NCBI GenBank assembly: GCA_013390375.1
Contig: JACATA010000007.1
Span: 1-28,412 of the forward strand
DNA length: 28,412 bases
Reading direction: 5' to 3'
Source of the DNA: Marine Group I thaumarchaeote
GTDB lineage: Archaea > Thermoproteota > Nitrososphaeria > Nitrososphaerales > Nitrosopumilaceae
A model generated the notes under the pieces. That model ran no database searches and was not told the DNA's origin. It saw nothing but the letters and a program-made list of their open reading frames with translations. This document shows, piece by piece, positions 15,031 to 20,300 of the stretch; within the stretch, counting starts at the first letter, position 1, and the number at the start of each line of letters is the position of its first letter. The position numbers and the translations under genes were made by a program.

Positions 15031-15510
15031 ATGAAACCAACTAAAAGTAGAAATCACCAAACTTATCGAGCTATGAACCAAGTTGTAAATAAACAAATTT
15101 GTGCTCCAATATCAAAAGAACTCCGTAAAAAATATTCTCGACGTAGTATTCGAATTATGCCTGATGATATAGTCAAAGTTGTACGTGGAGAATACAAGGG
15201 TCTTACTGGTAAAGTTACTAAAATCTCAATGCAAAGTAGTGGTGTTGCTATAGAAGGCAATAAAAAAGAAAAATTAAAAGGTGAAAAAATTGATGTTTAT
15301 ATTCATTCTACAAATATGATTATCACATCATTAAATACCGATGATAAATGGCGTCTCAAAATATTAGAAAAAAAGCCAAAATCAAAAATTAAATCTATGA
15401 AAGAAGAAGCTAAAAAGAAAAGTGAAGTTAAATCAACAGCTAAAAAGAAAAGTGAAGTTAAATCAACAGCTAAAAAGAAAGATGACAACAAAAAGAGTGA
15501 GAAAAAATAA
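15031..15510 (+). CDS. rpl24: 50S ribosomal protein L24 with Lys-rich C-terminal extension
   Basis: KOW region (IVKVVRGEYKGLTGKVTKI). The C-terminal ~35 aa are a K/S/E-rich tail containing a duplicated decapeptide. Confidence 0.92.
   Translation: MKPTKSRNHQTYRAMNQVVNKQICAPISKELRKKYSRRSIRIMPDDIVKVVRGEYKGLTGKVTKISMQSSGVAIEGNKKEKLKGEKIDVYIHSTNMIITSLNTDDKWRLKILEKKPKSKIKSMKEEAKKKSEVKSTAKKKSEVKSTAKKKDDNKKSEKK
15409..15480 (+). repeat. perfect 30-nt tandem repeat, about 2.4 copies, inside the rpl24 3' end
   Basis: gctaaaaagaaaagtgaagttaaatcaaca occurs at 15409..15438 and 15439..15468, followed by 12 more matching nt. In frame; encodes AKKKSEVKST twice. Confidence 0.95.
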
Positions 15511-17346: not shown

Positions 17347-17893
17347 ACAAATAGAAAAATCCACAACAGAAATTCAAATACCTAAAGATGTTAAAGTTAA
17401 TTTAAAGGGCAGTATGTTGCAGGTCCAAGGACCATTGGGTAAAGTGTATAAAAATTTCAAGAAAATTCCTGTTCTTATTCAAATAAATGATAACAAAATA
17501 CTTCTTAGGAAAACAGGTGAACGAAAAAAACATCAAGCCATACTTAATACCGCTAAATCATTAATCCAAACACTTTGTACAGGTGTTGTAGATGGATTTA
17601 CGATAAAAATGAAAATTGTTTATTCACATTTTCCTGTCACTGTTAAAGTAGAAGCTAAAAAAGTTTTGATTAAAAATTTTCAAGGAGAAAGAGCACCAAG
17701 AATTTCTATGATAAAAGGAGACACAAAGGTTGTTGTAAAGGGAGATGATGTTATAATAACAGGACCAGTTTTGACAGATGTTTCACAAACAGCTGCAAAT
17801 ATTCAATTAAAATCTAAGGTAAAGAATAAAGATCATCGTGTATTTCTAGATGGGATTTATAGGTATTCCAAATCAAAAGGAATCGAAGAATAA
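17336..17893 (+). CDS. rpl6: 50S ribosomal protein L6
   Basis: Two-domain L6-like sequence (IQIPKDVKVNLKGSMLQVQGPLGK). Last r-protein gene before the tRNA. Confidence 0.92.
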   Translation: MSTKQIEKSTTEIQIPKDVKVNLKGSMLQVQGPLGKVYKNFKKIPVLIQINDNKILLRKTGERKKHQAILNTAKSLIQTLCTGVVDGFTIKMKIVYSHFPVTVKVEAKKVLIKNFQGERAPRISMIKGDTKVVVKGDDVIITGPVLTDVSQTAANIQLKSKVKNKDHRVFLDGIYRYSKSKGIEE

Positions 17894-17958
17894 TACAATA
17901 TATCGTTTCTTATGTTGATCATAAGGATTAAATCGCTTTTGACTTGGTAAAAATTTAT

Positions 17959-18032
17959 GCCGCCCTAGCTCAGCGTGGTAGAGCGTCGGACTGTTAATCC
18001 GTTGGTCGTCAGTTCAAGTCTGACGGGCGGCG
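17959..18032 (+). tRNA. tRNA-Asn (anticodon GTT), 74 nt, no intron, CCA not encoded
   Basis: Hand-folded cloverleaf. Acceptor GCCGCCC/GGGCGGC, D stem GCTC/GAGC, anticodon loop CTGTTAA, T arm GTCAG-TTCAAGT-CTGAC, 5-nt variable loop. One U-U at the top of the anticodon stem. Confidence 0.93.
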
Positions 18033-18035
18033 CAT

Positions 18036-18060
18036 ATATTTCTAAATTCGAATTTAGAAA
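18036..18060. repeat. palindromic element, copy 1 (atatttctaaattcgaatttagaaa; 22-nt perfect palindrome core)
   Basis: Starts 3 nt after the tRNA discriminator base. An identical 25-mer recurs at 19390..19414. Could form a hairpin (terminator or processing signal) or be a protein-binding site. Confidence 0.85.
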
Positions 18061-18151
18061 CATTGATCGATTAAACCTAAATGGTGTATCGAATTAGACT
18101 GTAACGATCTAATAGATGATCGCATATTAGTAGTAATGCAGGAGGTCTACA

Positions 18152-18406
18152 ATGGCCAGAACTAAACGAGCAAATAGATACTGTGTTGATTGTGGTTCCA
18201 GGCTAGTTTACTACCCACGATTATCAAACCCGAAGGCTCCTAATGAATATAGAGTACTAGTTTATGCTTGTCCTGACTGTAGTAATGACTTTGATAGGCC
18301 AAAAATGTTCTCAATAAAAAGAAATCAAGTTGAAAATCCACTTGAAACAGTGGAAATTGAGATAAAACAAGTGCAAAAACAACTTCAAAATAATCCAAAA
18401 AAATAA
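18152..18406 (+). CDS. hypothetical zinc-ribbon protein, 84 aa
   Basis: CVDCGS...CPDCSN CxxC pairs. A strong SD-like GGAGGT lies 7 nt upstream of the ATG. Confidence 0.65.
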   Translation: MARTKRANRYCVDCGSRLVYYPRLSNPKAPNEYRVLVYACPDCSNDFDRPKMFSIKRNQVENPLETVEIEIKQVQKQLQNNPKK

Positions 18407-18416
18407 CAGAGTATAC

Positions 18417-18641
18417 TTGGAACCTGAAAGACAAAGAAGTAATTGGTGGTATCTTGTACCAATTTTTTTAGGATTGATAGGAGGGATCATAGCATATTTT
18501 GCGTTAAGAAATGATGATCGTAGAAAGGCAAAAAATTGCCTTTTTCTTGGAATAATCCTTGGAGCTATAGGAATAATTGTTAATCTGCTGTTTTTGACTT
18601 CAGAAATTCCAATTGAAAAGCAGTTTGGTGTAAATTTATGA
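18417..18641 (+). CDS. hypothetical small membrane protein, two TM helices, 74 aa
   Basis: SNWWYLVPIFLGLIGGIIAYFALRNDDRRKAKNCLFLGIILGAIGIIV. I recall this motif from archaeal small membrane or Zn-ribbon-fused proteins (from memory, unverified). TTG start. Confidence 0.6.
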   Translation: MEPERQRSNWWYLVPIFLGLIGGIIAYFALRNDDRRKAKNCLFLGIILGAIGIIVNLLFLTSEIPIEKQFGVNL

Positions 18642-18680
18642 AAATTTTTAAAATAATAACATAGTAGGTGATATATTCGA

Positions 18681-18872
18681 TTTCATGCGTAAATGCTCAA
18701 CCCCACCTATAGATCAAGTGATTTACGAACAACATGATTTTTTCAAAAACAGTGATTTTAGCGGGGGGTTGAACATTTATGCGTAAATATACGATCCAAC
18801 ACTCAAAAGACCCTGCTAGGCCATCCACAAACCGATCATCATTTTTTACTAAGCACAAACATTCAACCCCCC
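18681..18872. repeat. three copies of a ~24-nt G-run/C-run element in alternating orientation within a 340-nt non-coding region
   Basis: Copies are 18681..18704 (reverse), 18765..18788 (forward, ggggttgaacatttatgcgtaaat) and 18847..18870 (reverse). Core GGGGTTGA is in all three. The last copy is followed by T6 at 18873..18878. Confidence 0.6.
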
Positions 18873-18985
18873 TTTTTTGTGAAAAAAACGTGATCGAAGA
18901 TGAAAATTTTGTCAAAAAAAGACTGTAATTAACCAAAAATTCGTGACAAGCAGTACATAAGACACAATGTTTTAGGGGAAAATTA

Positions 18986-19315
18986 ATGGCTATTTCAAAA
19001 GCAAAACGTAGTGCTGCTGCAAAAAAGGCAGCACGAACTAGAAAGAGAAACGCTGCAGCCAAGAAAGCTAAGCGAACAACGGCCGCAAGAAAGAGAAAAC
19101 GCGGCGGCGCCAAGAAGAAAGGTGGCGCCAAGAAACGCGGCGGCGGCGGTAAGAAACGCGGCGGCGGCGGTAAGAAACGCGGCGGCGGCGGTAAGAAACG
19201 CGGCGGCGGCGGTAAGAAACGCGGCGGCGCTAAGAGAAAAGCACCTAAGAGAAAAGGCGGCGCTAAGAGAAAAGCACCTAAGAGAAAAGGCGGCGCTAAG
19301 AAGCGAAAAAGATAA
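18986..19315 (+). CDS. hyper-basic low-complexity repeat protein, 109 aa (K/R/G/A-rich; histone-H1/protamine-like composition)
   Basis: ATG with SD-like AGGGGA about 8 nt upstream and a T-rich tract downstream. Contains only M,A,I,S,K,R,T,N,G,P. KKRGGGG x4 and KRKAPKRKGGA x2. The region is open in three frames; this frame is chosen on start and terminator context. Confidence 0.65.
   Translation: MAISKAKRSAAAKKAARTRKRNAAAKKAKRTTAARKRKRGGAKKKGGAKKRGGGGKKRGGGGKKRGGGGKKRGGGGKKRGGAKRKAPKRKGGAKRKAPKRKGGAKKRKR
19130..19231 (+). repeat. perfect 21-nt tandem repeat, 4 full copies plus a partial fifth
   Basis: aagaaacgcggcggcggcggt occurs at 19130, 19151, 19172 and 19193, followed by aagaaacgcggcggcgct. 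In frame (KKRGGGG). Confidence 0.95.
19232..19297 (+). repeat. perfect 33-nt tandem repeat, 2 copies
   Basis: aagagaaaagcacctaagagaaaaggcggcgct occurs at 19232 and 19265. In frame (KRKAPKRKGGA). Confidence 0.95.
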
Positions 19316-19339
19316 GCAATCTTTGACGTTGATAGCCCC

Positions 19340-19353
19340 TTTTTTATTTTTTT
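19340..19353 (+). terminator. oligo-T tract (TTTTTTATTTTTTT), candidate archaeal terminator
   Basis: Lies 25 nt after the stop of 18986..19315. Archaeal termination commonly uses T-runs. Confidence 0.45.
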
Positions 19354-19388
19354 AATTAAACCTAAGAAGACTTACTGCATTAACATGT

Positions 19389-19418
19389 AATATTTCTAAA
19401 TTCGAATTTAGAAATATT
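19389..19418. repeat. palindromic element, copy 2 (30-nt perfect palindrome aatatttctaaattcgaatttagaaatatt)
   Basis: Contains the same 25-mer as 18036..18060. Sits between the convergent genes 18986..19315 (+) and 19426..19833 (-). Confidence 0.85.
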
Positions 19419-19425
19419 GTAAATC

Positions 19426-19833
19426 TTACCCTTGATTCATGTTAATTGAAGGCAAAATGTATACATGCCCAGGCTTAATTTTGAAGATTATACGTTTTTC
19501 ATTAATTCTTTTAAATGGATATTTTTCCAAATTCATGTATTTCTTGGCCAATTGATCAGCATGAGTATAATCATAATCTGGAATAATTTCTATGACTGTG
19601 CCCCTAATGGTAGTCATATCAAGAGGATTATCATGCGCCACTACACATACTGCTACACGTGAATCATGTAATACGTTTCTATGTTTTATTCTGCCTTCAG
19701 CAGTATTTACCAAAATATGACCATCCTGGTAATCACCCCAAACAGGGGTAAGTTGAGGGGAACCATCTAAATTGATTGTTGCAATAAAAATAAGATTTTT
19801 TTCCTGAAATAACCTCTCGACTTTTTGATCCAT
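19426..19833 (-). CDS. pyridoxamine 5'-phosphate oxidase-like FMN-binding protein
   Basis: Split-barrel PNPOx-like pattern (LIFIATINLDGSPQLTPVWGDYQDGHILVNTAEGRIKHRNVLHDSRVAV). Confidence 0.75.
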   Translation of the reverse strand: MDQKVERLFQEKNLIFIATINLDGSPQLTPVWGDYQDGHILVNTAEGRIKHRNVLHDSRVAVCVVAHDNPLDMTTIRGTVIEIIPDYDYTHADQLAKKYMNLEKYPFKRINEKRIIFKIKPGHVYILPSINMNQG

Positions 19834-19883
19834 AAATTAGTTAAAAAAATCTAGTATTTATTCGAGTATTTTTTTAGATCAAT

Positions 19884-20300
19884 ATGAAAATCGAGATTCC
19901 ATTCAGTGGCCATAAAAATATACTTTCATTACACAAAAAGACCATAGAAATCACAAAGGATAATGAATTGACCGTTAATGGTGATTGCATTGTTGGCACA
20001 AATTCTAGCCTGGCCTGCATAGATCTACCAGAAAAATTCAAAAAAAAGATACAAAACCCGGATACAACGATTGTGTTTACTATTGTAGCTGATGACTATT
20101 CTTTTTCAATACACGGAAAGGGATCAGAAAAACTAACGCTAAAACATCCAAATGACATAGTATTACGTAAAAGTGCATTCACATGTTCTAGAACCATTGC
20201 TATAAAATGCGACAAAGCTTCAGACGATATACCAAGAGAGATGATAAAAAAACTTCAAAACCCAAAAACTAGTGGAAAATTAGTTATAGAAATAAAATAA
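19884..20300 (+). CDS. DUF371 domain protein
   Basis: GHKNILSLHKKTIEITKDNELTVNGDCIVG resembles the DUF371 N-terminal signature. Size fits the family. Confidence 0.7.
   Translation: MKIEIPFSGHKNILSLHKKTIEITKDNELTVNGDCIVGTNSSLACIDLPEKFKKKIQNPDTTIVFTIVADDYSFSIHGKGSEKLTLKHPNDIVLRKSAFTCSRTIAIKCDKASDDIPREMIKKLQNPKTSGKLVIEIK

Follow-up and report, generated by a model that had tools for sequence, protein, structure and literature searches.

The window, the whole 28,412-nt stretch of DNA from a Marine Group I thaumarchaeote that was analyzed, contains on its forward strand a coding sequence (18986..19315, ATG start, stop codon included, as given by the ORF listing) for a previously unannotated polycationic protein of 109 aa. 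The composition of the protein was K34 G26 A20 R19 T3 S2 P2 M1 I1 N1, with K and R accounting for 49% of the residues, a net charge of +53, and a computed pI of 12. Residues D, E, F, W, Y, C, and H were absent, as were L, V, and Q, and no hydrophobic stretch fit for a signal peptide or a membrane span was found in the 109-aa sequence. An earlier sequence-only reading had described this plus-strand ORF and its lack of acidic, aromatic, Cys, and His residues exactly as we found them; its claim that only K/R/G/A-type residues are used was incorrect, as 10 of the 109 residues are others. Across the whole window, 40-aa stretches that were free of stops and reached 45% K+R began only between 15401 and 19229, which covers the polycationic ORF and the part of the L24 ribosomal-protein gene encoding its lysine-rich C-terminal tail. 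All tryptic peptides computed for the protein were 5 aa or shorter, so its absence from trypsin-based proteomes would be expected. An exact-sequence look-up of the 109-aa protein returned no record.

The coding sequence demonstrated a GC content of 0.56 compared to 0.32 for the window. Under the codon preferences of the window, the same 109 aa would be expected to yield a GC content of 0.44; the amino-acid composition explains the excess only in part, and the remainder is due to codons of the repeat tail that are rare in the neighborhood. GGC made up 81% of the Gly codons (12% in neighboring genes) and CGC 32% of the Arg codons (2% in neighboring genes), and GC3 was 0.58 in the repeat tail, 0.28 in the N-terminal 40 codons, and 0.19 in neighboring genes. 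The in-frame codon counts (GGC 21, AAG 18, AAA 16, AGA 9, GCA 8, GCT 8, CGC 6) bore out the GC-rich codon usage proposed earlier for GGC, AAG, and CGC, whereas GCG, named in the same proposal, did not occur in frame.

The tail contains two perfect tandem repeats: a 21-nt repeat at 19130..19229 (plus strand, 4.8 copies of AAGAAACGCGGCGGCGGCGGT, encoding KKRGGGG; Tandem Repeats Finder, 100% matches, score 200) and a 33-nt repeat at 19223..19301 (plus strand, 2.4 copies, encoding KRKAPKRKGGA; 100% matches, score 158). The four KKRGGGG and two KRKAPKRKGGA units counted by the first reading were therefore recovered, the former with an additional partial copy. The 21-nt repeat was written in the locally rare codons GGC and CGC, and the tail was predicted to be disordered (AlphaFold2, pLDDT <50). 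The turnover of the repeats that had been proposed from their perfection was also observed: relatives about 84% identical in the flanks bore different arrays, with no KKRGGGG unit but four KRKAPKRKGGA units and a short KRKGGA copy in one (L023), and KKRGGG[GA] units without any KRKAP unit in another (L003). Gly-rich repeats were confined to the sublineage formed by the window and these two relatives. Across the family the tails were hypervariable, yet K+R was always 37-53% and acidic residues were absent in 29 of 30; the filler residues differed among members (G, A/P, T/S, or V) while the charge was kept. At the level of gene sequence, these comparisons demonstrated a tail built and rebuilt via in-frame tandem duplications and conserved only in charge density.

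A tri-RGG element comprises no fewer than three RGG tripeptides with 0-4 residues between them. The window tail falls within this definition, with at least three RGG tripeptides (KRGGAKK, four times KKRGGGG, and KKRGGAK) spaced by GGKK. It resembles RGG/GAR boxes in its four-residue spacing (RGG-GGKK-RGG…), its glycine richness, and its disorder, and differs from them in being dominated by lysine and devoid of aromatic residues. The RGG feature does not define the function of the protein because it is not conserved in the family, and it is not the functional core since other members use A/P, T/S, or V instead.

The conserved part of the protein is its N-terminal module (residues 1-40, MAISKAKRSAAAKKAARTRKRN followed by AAAKKAKRTTAARKRKRG; 18986..19105, plus strand), delimited by alignment and predicted by AlphaFold2 to form a single, uniformly basic alpha-helix. 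The 30 intact homologs shared a near-invariant N-terminal module, SKAKRS-AAKKAARTRKRN, in which the changes were mostly synonymous. Family-wide, the conserved module spanned about 22-45 residues (…KA[KQ]RS-AAKKAARTRKRN…), and R8, R17, T18, R19, K20, R21, and N22 were invariant among 25 aligned members. As a definition of the family we used the N-terminal motif [ST]KA[KQ]R[SA]xAxKKAARTRKRN, located in the first ~25 residues, together with a basic tail behind it that contains acidic residues rarely or not at all; residues 4-22 of the window protein (SKAKRSAAAKKAARTRKRN) match this definition with all invariant positions present. AlphaFold2 placed residues 5-40 in a helix, with block-mean pLDDT values of 90, 96, and 92 for residues 1-30, which for an Ala/Lys/Arg-rich peptide would be poor support for a defined fold. 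The predicted helix was basic on every face and not amphipathic; its charge moment of 0.02-0.07 led us to reject an amphipathic membrane or antimicrobial helix. The functional core of the family lies in this helical module of 22-45 conserved residues rather than in the K/R/G repeats, and the 22-residue RTRKRN helix may represent a new portable nucleic-acid-binding module. The earlier reading had overlooked the helical module, the widespread multi-copy family, and the conserved dedicated promoter and operator described below.

On comparative evidence, 18986..19315 was shown to be a genuine protein-coding gene under purifying selection. The proposed frame was the sole frame open in 30 of 30 homologous loci; over the motif, the entropy at codon positions 1/2/3 was 8.1/4.7/18.6, and pairwise codon differences comprised 3685 synonymous versus 1358 nonsynonymous changes. 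The synonymous changes included codon-family switches for Arg (CGN<->AGR) and Ser (AGY<->TCN), and each of the 19 tandem-repeat arrays detected among the family genes had a period divisible by 3. The open frame, the synonymous excess, and the repeat periods confirmed the reading frame proposed earlier. Two overlapping ORFs were considered compositional by-products rather than genes: a +1-frame ORF of 114 aa (19011..19355, plus strand), ruled out because stop codons interrupt it at 26 of the 30 homologous loci, and an antisense ORF of 144 aa (18697..19131, minus strand), rejected because the Arg and Ser codon switches fit the sense frame only. The antisense frame is stop-free by composition, since K, R, A, and G codons give no reverse-complement stops. 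Metagenome gene callers at times began in the +1 frame (P0001, P0007). The gene was frameshifted in three long-read metagenome contigs (L001-L003) of 2-14x coverage; phase variation or pseudogenization was rejected there, as S4e, L5, L6, and L24 in these contigs were also broken, and the frameshifts are most likely long-read indel errors because other genes were split as well. In L001, sequence identity switched partway through the gene, which might reflect recombination. A further contig, L004, terminated in Illumina adapter sequence.

Upstream of the gene, a composite-pattern scan identified the inverted repeat TTGTCA-N29-TGACAA (18909..18949, plus strand), a candidate operator common to the paralogs that lies upstream of the putative promoter. 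The composite pattern GTCAA-N24-34-TGAC-N6-14-ATAAS occurred once in the window versus 0.02 times expected by chance and once in each of 17 loci, covering both paralog groups A and C; it was located at -75..-25 of the ATG in loci with a set gene start. The putative promoter, a TATA-like box ACATAAGA (18955..18962, plus strand) ending 24 nt before the ATG, was recognized by conservation across paralog groups, all three of which kept it as ACATAAGA, ATATAAC, or CTATAAGA with nearly constant spacing to the ATG. Other genes of the window carried TATA-like boxes at -35..-25 from their start codons. Downstream, 21 nt past the stop codon, CCCC followed by a T6-A-T7 tract (19336..19353, plus strand) was read as a probable archaeal oligo-T terminator, and a T-run was present within ~10-30 nt past the stop codon in most homologous loci. 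With its own promoter-like box and T-tract, and with neighbors that are separate or convergent, the gene forms a single-gene unit; its transcript would be a monocistronic, leaderless mRNA that starts from the TATA-like box, is controlled by the operator shared with the paralogs, and ends at the oligo-T tract.

A perfect 22-nt palindrome, TTTCTAAATTCGAATTTAGAAA, lies between the polycationic gene and a convergent PNPOx-family gene (19393..19414), and a second exact copy lies 6 nt past tRNA-Asn (18039..18060), compared to 0 copies expected by chance. The pair brackets the genes for a Zn-ribbon protein, a TM protein, and the polycationic protein. The palindrome was conserved after the orthologous gene in other genera, and palindrome pairs were also present in L001, L002, L026, L027, L031, and L034. 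A distance of 1.1 kb separates the polycationic gene from the L3…L6 ribosomal-protein operon that precedes it in the window; tRNA-Asn is also upstream. The predicted fold of the 340-nt upstream spacer exceeded that of shuffled controls only slightly (z = -2.3), and Rfam scans of the locus were negative both at gathering thresholds and at E<=1.

A scan of reference genomes yielded the 30 intact homologous ORFs of the Nitrosopumilales, from Nitrosopumilus, Nitrosarchaeum, Cenarchaeum, Nitrosopelagicus, and others, and one motif-bearing protein from a Planctomycetia genome; two large protein searches gave 167 and 122 matches. Six full-length family proteins from reference genomes were missing from the 15-billion-protein collection, in which other full-length members were found by exhaustive search. 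Positional orthologs convergent with the PNPOx-family gene occurred across genera, and paralog groups were present as well. The family was multi-copy, with up to three matches per chromosome and lengths of 34-159 aa, including highly conserved mini-proteins of 34-37 aa that displayed no consistent genomic neighborhood. The module was also found in small high-GC proteins, probably bacterial, whose contigs were uninformatively short. In virus-like contigs of ~95-125 kb, five to eight tandem modules formed a 400-450-aa protein adjoining the gene for the terminase large subunit. An IMG/VR scan of 2.9 million viral contigs revealed only two loci with a relative, indicating that the small-protein family is not mainly viral. 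Two fusions were observed: the module was joined N-terminally to an HNH endonuclease in P0177 (PF13391, 26 bits versus a cutoff of 21), and a second fusion partner gave a weak VRR-NUC-like match.

The window protein and five other family members had no match in Pfam and NCBIfam even at E<=1, among them the models for histone fold, Alba, Cren7, Sul7d, and MC1, and the predicted structure of one helix plus disorder was not a histone fold, SH3-like fold, or Alba fold. This agrees with the earlier remark that the protein could not be assigned to a known archaeal chromatin family. A PHROGs scan of family members gave no match, and no description of the family emerged from the searchable literature, whether queried with the motif string or for lysine-rich or H1-like thaumarchaeal proteins. 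As judged from these searches, the family is widespread in the Nitrosopumilales (marine and freshwater ammonia-oxidizing archaea) and previously undescribed.

The best explanation, to which we assign a probability of about 0.5, is that the gene encodes a largely disordered, H1/protamine-like coating protein for nucleic acid, probably DNA, composed of a helix anchor and a polycationic tail. A nucleic-acid-coating or condensing role of the 109-aa protein is plausible and gains only indirect support from the fusion of the module to an HNH endonuclease and its multiplication in the terminase-adjacent viral protein. Upon binding, the helix would fold and anchor the protein with high affinity, surrounded by nucleic acid either within a groove or between a pair of duplexes. 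The tail, flexible and polycationic and composed in the window of KKR clusters with GGGG spacers followed by KRKAPKRKGGA, would neutralize backbone phosphates and bridge neighboring segments, and the polymer would be coated and condensed in the manner of linker-histone tails, protamines, and chlamydial Hc2. Chromosomal DNA would be the most likely target, which would make the protein nucleoid-associated. Known nucleoid-associated proteins are usually encoded in single-gene operons, and being small, basic, and single-gene serves as a criterion for them (PMC7613761); the window protein is all three (109 aa, pI 12, own promoter-like box and T-tract). The histone of N. maritimus accounts for <0.06% of the proteome (PMC7613761), indicating that known chromatin proteins are scarce in the lineage. 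What would favor DNA over RNA is a small number of domain fusions and a single viral setting. A dedicated operator, moreover, would point to expression under certain conditions instead of at all times, an unusual trait for a chromatin protein made in bulk.

Among known systems, the C-terminal domain of eukaryotic linker histone H1 and the protamines and sperm nuclear basic proteins share with the family an extreme K/R content, disorder, K/A/P/G/S/T filler, short tandem repeats, rapid sequence turnover with charge density kept, and a presumed charge-neutralizing condensation. The resemblance of the disordered lysine-rich tail with short repeats is one of type only: the family is archaeal, its anchor is a single basic helix, its nucleosome context is absent or minor, and the winged-helix model of linker histone H1/H5 (Linker_histone, PF00538) was not matched by the window protein and five members at E<=1. 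Chlamydial Hc1/Hc2 (HctA/HctB), AlgP, the PhaF C-terminus, and the actinobacterial HupB/MDP1 tails carry lysine/alanine-rich tandem repeats with strain-variable copy number; Hc1/Hc2 and bacterial H1-like repeat proteins bind and condense DNA, and the developmental regulation of Hc1/Hc2 would be in keeping with the operator-like element of the polycationic gene. The Pfam models for Hc1/HC2 and bacterial H1-like proteins gave no match at E<=1, and the family differs from this group in its unique N-terminal RTRKRN helix and, in the window, in its glycine filler. The module also resembles the ARM peptides (lambda/P22 N, HIV Rev/Tat) by type rather than by alignment, as a ~20-residue portable basic peptide with Thr, Arg, and Asn that is helical on binding and enveloped by a groove. 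ARMs bind specific RNA hairpins, whereas the fusions of the new family are to DNA nucleases.

A ribosome- or RNA-associated factor, such as a lineage-specific small ribosomal protein, an rRNA/RNA chaperone, or a hibernation-type factor, is a tentative alternative that we consider clearly less probable. Its basic helix could insert into rRNA and its tail decorate the surface. Basic side chains on all faces of a helix would be expected of an RNA-buried peptide, and in this respect the helix is no less similar to the RNA-embedded extensions of ribosomal proteins and to arginine-rich RNA-binding peptides than to DNA binders; the RGG tripeptides of the window tail are likewise of an RNA-binding type, but limited to its sublineage. 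A stretch of 22-25 residues is almost identical between the archaeal members and the high-GC, probably bacterial, proteins, as would suit a universally conserved target such as rRNA. The gene follows the L3…L6 operon and tRNA-Asn in the window and close relatives, and one 34-aa mini-form sits between SecY-Adk-Cmk-Cbf5 and eIF-1A; the two contexts could equally hint at a translation-related role. This proximity is not conserved, however: other orthologs have ~2 kb of unrelated genes in between, and paralogs and other mini-forms are located elsewhere. Small basic ribosomal proteins (eL29, eL14, eL41, actinobacterial bS22/bL37) are similar in size, charge, ribosomal-gene proximity in some genomes, and a layout in which the N-terminal segment is conserved and the repetitive tail varies, and the mini-forms match them in size and composition. 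In contrast to stoichiometric ribosomal proteins, the family is multi-copy, 34-159 aa in length, and variable in its tails, and it matched no ribosomal family or ribosome chain: a profile search of all PDB chain sequences, including many ribosome structures, returned only eL37, at a nonsignificant E=0.58, and no thaumarchaeal ribosome chain. For N. maritimus ribosomes, the literature search found only tomography work. The fusion partners, moreover, are DNA nucleases and not RNA enzymes.

A role with another polyanion or outside nucleic acids, as a counter-ion of polyphosphate granules, a nitrogen-rich storage polypeptide, or a secreted or lytic cationic peptide, appears improbable. Selection of the tail for charge density rather than sequence would suit any polyanion, K, R, and G are nitrogen-rich, and N. 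maritimus cells contain polyphosphate-like granules (PMC11082331). The invariant R/T/N helix, the nuclease fusions, and the viral arrays argue instead for a specific macromolecular target; the lack of a stretch fit for a signal peptide or membrane span and the non-amphipathic helix make secretion or a membrane-active antimicrobial mode unlikely, and a PADLOC scan of family members matched no defense system. That the locus is foreign (viral or horizontally transferred) or non-coding simple-sequence DNA with an accidental ORF, or a real gene in another frame or strand, as its GC content, atypical codons, two longer overlapping ORFs, frameshifted contigs, and viral relatives might suggest, is highly improbable and already largely refuted by positional orthologs with the same flanking genes in several genera, a near-normal GC3 (0.28) in the N-terminal third, the limitation of atypical codons to recently amplified repeat units, the closure of the alternative frames in most relatives, the synonymous pattern and repeat periods that demand the proposed frame, the probable indel origin of the frameshifts in low-coverage contigs with other broken genes, and the scarcity of viral relatives (2 of 2.9 million contigs).

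The in-frame tandem-repeat tails illustrate how selection in nature can act on charge density instead of sequence, and the RTRKRN helix is common to viruses, nucleases, and the small proteins of high GC content that are probably bacterial. Proteins in which K or R recurs every 1-5 residues give no detectable tryptic peptides, and their low-complexity ORFs may be mis-called, so that entire polycationic protein classes may be absent from catalogs. The Nitrosopumilales are among the most abundant microbes of the ocean and drive nitrification, and published proteomics puts their histones at <0.06% of the protein. A conserved multi-copy family of proteins with a charge of about +50 is an obvious candidate DNA packager in these organisms. 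It is possible, although we consider it unlikely, that the family is the main charge-neutralizing, nucleoid-condensing protein of marine ammonia-oxidizing archaea, a prokaryotic protamine/H1 analog whose anchor helix is exchanged with viruses and bacteria and whose tail tunes condensation between populations. If true, the family would have been overlooked since trypsin destroys the protein, gene callers sometimes mis-frame the gene, and domain databases hold no model of it, and it would explain how DNA is organized in tiny cells with almost no histone.

The open reading frame at 18986-19315 (+), which starts with ATG and encodes 109 residues (MAISKAKRSAAAKKAARTRKRNAAAKKAKRTTAARKRKRGGAKKKGGAKKRGGGGKKRGGGGKKRGGGGKKRGGGGKKRGGAKRKAPKRKGGAKRKAPKRKGGAKKRKR), was found exactly as the sequence-only reading had described it. 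Lysine (34), glycine (26), alanine (20) and arginine (19) dominated the product, but ten other residues were present, and the claim of a protein made only of K/R/G/A-type residues thus held for the bulk of the composition. Acidic, aromatic, Cys and His residues were absent, as had been stated, together with Leu, Val and Gln; the computed net charge was +53 and the computed pI 12. The tryptic peptides were all five residues or shorter, and trypsin-based proteomes could therefore not have reported the protein. Tandem Repeats Finder recovered both of the proposed perfect repeats at 100% identity, a 21-nt unit in 4.8 copies (19130-19229) and a 33-nt unit in 2.4 copies (19223-19301). The gene was GC-rich in an AT-rich setting, as claimed (0.56 for the CDS versus 0.32 for the window), with 0.44 predicted from amino-acid composition alone; the GC beyond this value came from codons that neighbouring genes seldom use and that cluster in the repeat tail, including GGC (21 of 26 Gly codons; 12% locally) and CGC (6 of 19 Arg codons; 2% locally). 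GC3 was 0.58 in the tail and 0.28 in the N-terminal 40 codons. Of the proposed GGC/GCG/CGC/AAG codons, GCG was absent in frame. The codon pattern suits a recent amplification of a small number of GC-rich units better than an origin in foreign DNA.

Scanning reference genomes for the protein's conserved N-terminus yielded 31 loci, 30 of them Nitrosopumilales-type (Nitrosopumilus, Nitrosarchaeum, Cenarchaeum, Nitrosopelagicus, Ca. N. limneticus and Nitrosomaritimum), including two that were labelled as other phyla yet were very similar in sequence. A complete ORF of 34-159 aa was present in 29 of the 30, and the remaining one was truncated where the stored stretch ended. Of the possible frames, the proposed one alone was open throughout the 30 loci tested. 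Stops interrupted the +1 frame in 26 of them, and one antisense frame was frequently open, solely owing to the inability of K, R, A and G codons to give reverse-complement stops; a conserved alternative frame, which would have spoken against the gene, was not supported. Within the 18-codon core motif, column entropies for codon positions 1, 2 and 3 were 8.1, 4.7 and 18.6, and pairwise codon differences were 3685 synonymous versus 1358 nonsynonymous, including Arg CGN<->AGR and Ser AGY<->TCN switches that are explained only by protein-level selection. DNA tandem repeats occurred in 19 of 30 family genes, with best periods of 15-84 nt that were multiples of three in all 19. Judged by this pattern of conservation, the ORF is a real gene in the proposed frame.

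Apparent frame-hybrid proteins in metagenome databases (P0001, P0002, P0006 and P0007) stemmed from contigs of 2-14x coverage and are most likely indel errors, since S4e, L5, L6 and L24 were also split there. Three contigs of relatives (L001-L003) carried frameshifts within the gene, a fourth (L004, ~2400-2506) terminated inside its repeats in Illumina adapter sequence (AGATCGGAAGAGCACACGTCTGAACTCCAGTCAC), and the single-cell contig behind locus L023 stopped immediately after it; the repeats thus break assemblies and mislead gene callers.

The N-terminal ~22 residues were nearly invariant (M-[AV]-x-[ST]-K-A-[KQ]-R-S-[AE]-A-x-K-K-A-A-R-T-R-K-R-N), and a second, weaker conserved segment (…AAKRKRS-AAKK) lengthened this module to about residue 45. 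AlphaFold2, run on a 19-sequence alignment, predicted a single helix at residues 5-40 (pLDDT 90-96 across the first 30) and a disordered tail (pLDDT <50). Basic residues were distributed evenly all round the helix (charge moment 0.02-0.07, the same as shuffled sequence), so the helix is not amphipathic and would need a ligand all around it. The tails had no alignable sequence in common, yet K+R made up 37-53% of every one, and Asp and Glu were absent from 29 of 30. Their filler varied by lineage, with Gly in the window and L023 and Ala/Pro, Thr/Ser or Val elsewhere, and many lineages had tandem repeats of their own (TAKRT x8, VARKVVRRA x3, KRRAPA…). Selection therefore maintains charge density and flexibility rather than a particular sequence. 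The ORF can be regarded as established as a conserved gene, whose polycationic product has a helical anchor and a disordered tail.

Homologues in related genomes also bore on the proposal that the repeats are still expanding and contracting. Relatives with ~84% identical flanks bore different arrays: L023 had four KRKAPKRKGGA units and a short KRKGGA copy without KKRGGGG, and L003 had KKRGGG[GA] units without KRKAP units. Copies were perfect within each genome, and both observations favour the proposal. Between L001 (7149-9273) and the window (18152-20300), identity was ~83% upstream of the gene and ~97% downstream, with the switch falling within the repeat tail; the cause is homologous recombination at the repeats or else a chimeric assembly.

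Profile searches of two large protein collections gave 167 and 122 family members, among which minimal forms of 34-37 aa were abundant (e.g., MAQTKAQRSAAAKKAARTRKRNAAAKKGSKSKKRKR). Database names were "hypothetical protein" or, for two NCBI fragments, "histone, partial". Neighbour clustering separated three groups. Group A comprised positional orthologues of the window gene in several genera, always convergent with a PNPOx-family gene; group B was found close to gamma-glutamyltransferase and ATP-grasp genes; and group C had a second motif copy inside the protein. One Nitrosarchaeum chromosome carried three copies.

The module also occurred outside these small proteins. On virus-like contigs of 95-125 kb, proteins of 400-450 aa had an N-terminal half of five to eight tandem modules and a hydrophobic C-terminal domain; their genes adjoined those for a terminase large subunit and a thermosome-type chaperonin. 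One of these contigs, L036 (8001-9332; also L037 and L038), encoded a 443-aa protein with eight modules (SKRSAAAKKAAATRKRNA) and a hydrophobic domain ending …RVNLF, beside a 2785-aa gene in which guanylate kinase and DNA ligase domains are encoded; such contigs may belong to a large marine, possibly archaeal, virus with a DNA-binding structural protein. The module further formed the N-terminus of ~70-aa proteins on high-GC contigs, probably actinobacterial, and was an N-terminal appendage of globular proteins (P0177, P0168, P0184 and P0151). P0177 had a significant HNH endonuclease domain (HNH_2, PF13391; 26 bits versus a cutoff of 21), P0168 resembles an HNH endonuclease on visual inspection, P0184 had a weak VRR-NUC-like match, and P0151, P0145 and P0136 had one unassigned domain in common.

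The window was archaeal (~31% GC), and its closest reference-genome match was the marine thaumarchaeal single-cell genome SCGC AAA007-O23, with flanks ~84% identical. Upstream of the gene lay a ribosomal-protein operon (L3…S4e…L6, 10359-17893) and tRNA-Asn (17959-18033), followed by genes for an 84-aa zinc-ribbon protein with two CxxC pairs and a 74-aa two-TM membrane protein (18152-18641). These two genes were kept as upstream neighbours in 8-9 loci across genera, and neither product had a significant Pfam family. The operon ended after L6 at the tRNA (17893-18152), as in L001-L003; in many archaea it runs on into L32e, L19e, L18 and S5. L24 (15031-15510) carried a lysine-rich C-terminal extension with a perfect 30-nt tandem repeat (AKKKSEVKST, x2.4, 15408-15480), a second repeat-built basic tail in this genome; L24 had 159 aa in the window and 195 aa in L002, and in L001 its gene was split. 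Downstream lay the convergent PNPOx-family gene, DUF371, an ArsR-type regulator and purC/purF/purL.

The ATG was preceded by a TATA-like box (ACATAAGA, 18955-18962) that ended 24 nt away and was conserved, with nearly the same spacing, across the three paralogue groups; other window genes had such boxes at the same distance, which would fit leaderless mRNAs. An inverted repeat (TTGTCA-N29-TGACAA, 18909-18949) stood just upstream of the box. For the composite pattern, the window had a single occurrence (0.02 expected by chance), as did each of 17 loci; where the gene start was defined, it lay at -75 to -25 of the ATG, with groups A and C both covered. Common to paralogues in different neighbourhoods, it appears to be a dedicated, shared transcription-factor operator. 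The ArsR-type HTH gene lay 1 kb downstream. A CCCC-T6-A-T7 tract followed the stop codon. A perfect 22-nt palindrome (TTTCTAAATTCGAATTTAGAAA; 0 expected by chance) stood 6 nt after tRNA-Asn (18039-18060) and again between the gene and the convergent PNPOx-family gene (19393-19414), bracketing the zinc-ribbon, TM-protein and polycationic-protein genes; such pairs were kept in group-A loci of other genera and may be bidirectional terminator hairpins or protein-binding sites. The 340-nt upstream spacer (18642-18985) contained a long-range G6TTGAA…TTCAAC6 inverted repeat (~18763-18873) and then a T-run; its RNA folded only slightly more favourably than shuffled sequence (z = -2.3), and Rfam gave no match.

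Binding to nucleic acid is strongly suggested for the protein. The module is portable, being carried by DNA-cutting enzymes and present among virion-morphogenesis genes, and this use points towards a nucleic-acid ligand, most simply DNA. The most likely specific target would be chromosomal DNA, which the protein would coat and bridge as an H1/protamine/Hc2-like nucleoid protein (probability about 0.5). A ribosome- or RNA-associated factor is the main rival and a tentative one: family genes lie near translation genes in two contexts, the helix is basic on all sides and the tail in the window's lineage is RGG-type, but the family is multi-copy and variable in length, its synteny with translation genes is not conserved, and it matched no ribosome chain. 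Another polyanion such as polyphosphate is an unlikely ligand, and a non-coding or foreign origin is less probable still.

Lysine/arginine-rich, repeat-bearing nucleic-acid condensers are a kind of protein already known from eukaryotes and bacteria. Neither this family with its RTRKRN helix module and promoter/operator, nor its spread across archaea, viruses and bacteria, is described in the libraries and papers that could be searched: Pfam, NCBIfam, PHROGs and PADLOC held no family model, PDB chain sequences gave no significant match, and the motif was absent from the searchable literature. The earlier view that the protein cannot be assigned to a known archaeal chromatin family is in keeping with Pfam and NCBIfam. 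Published proteomics provides independent context (PMC7613761): known chromatin proteins account for very little of what N. maritimus produces, histone for <0.06% of its proteome, and nucleoid-associated proteins are typically single-gene units.
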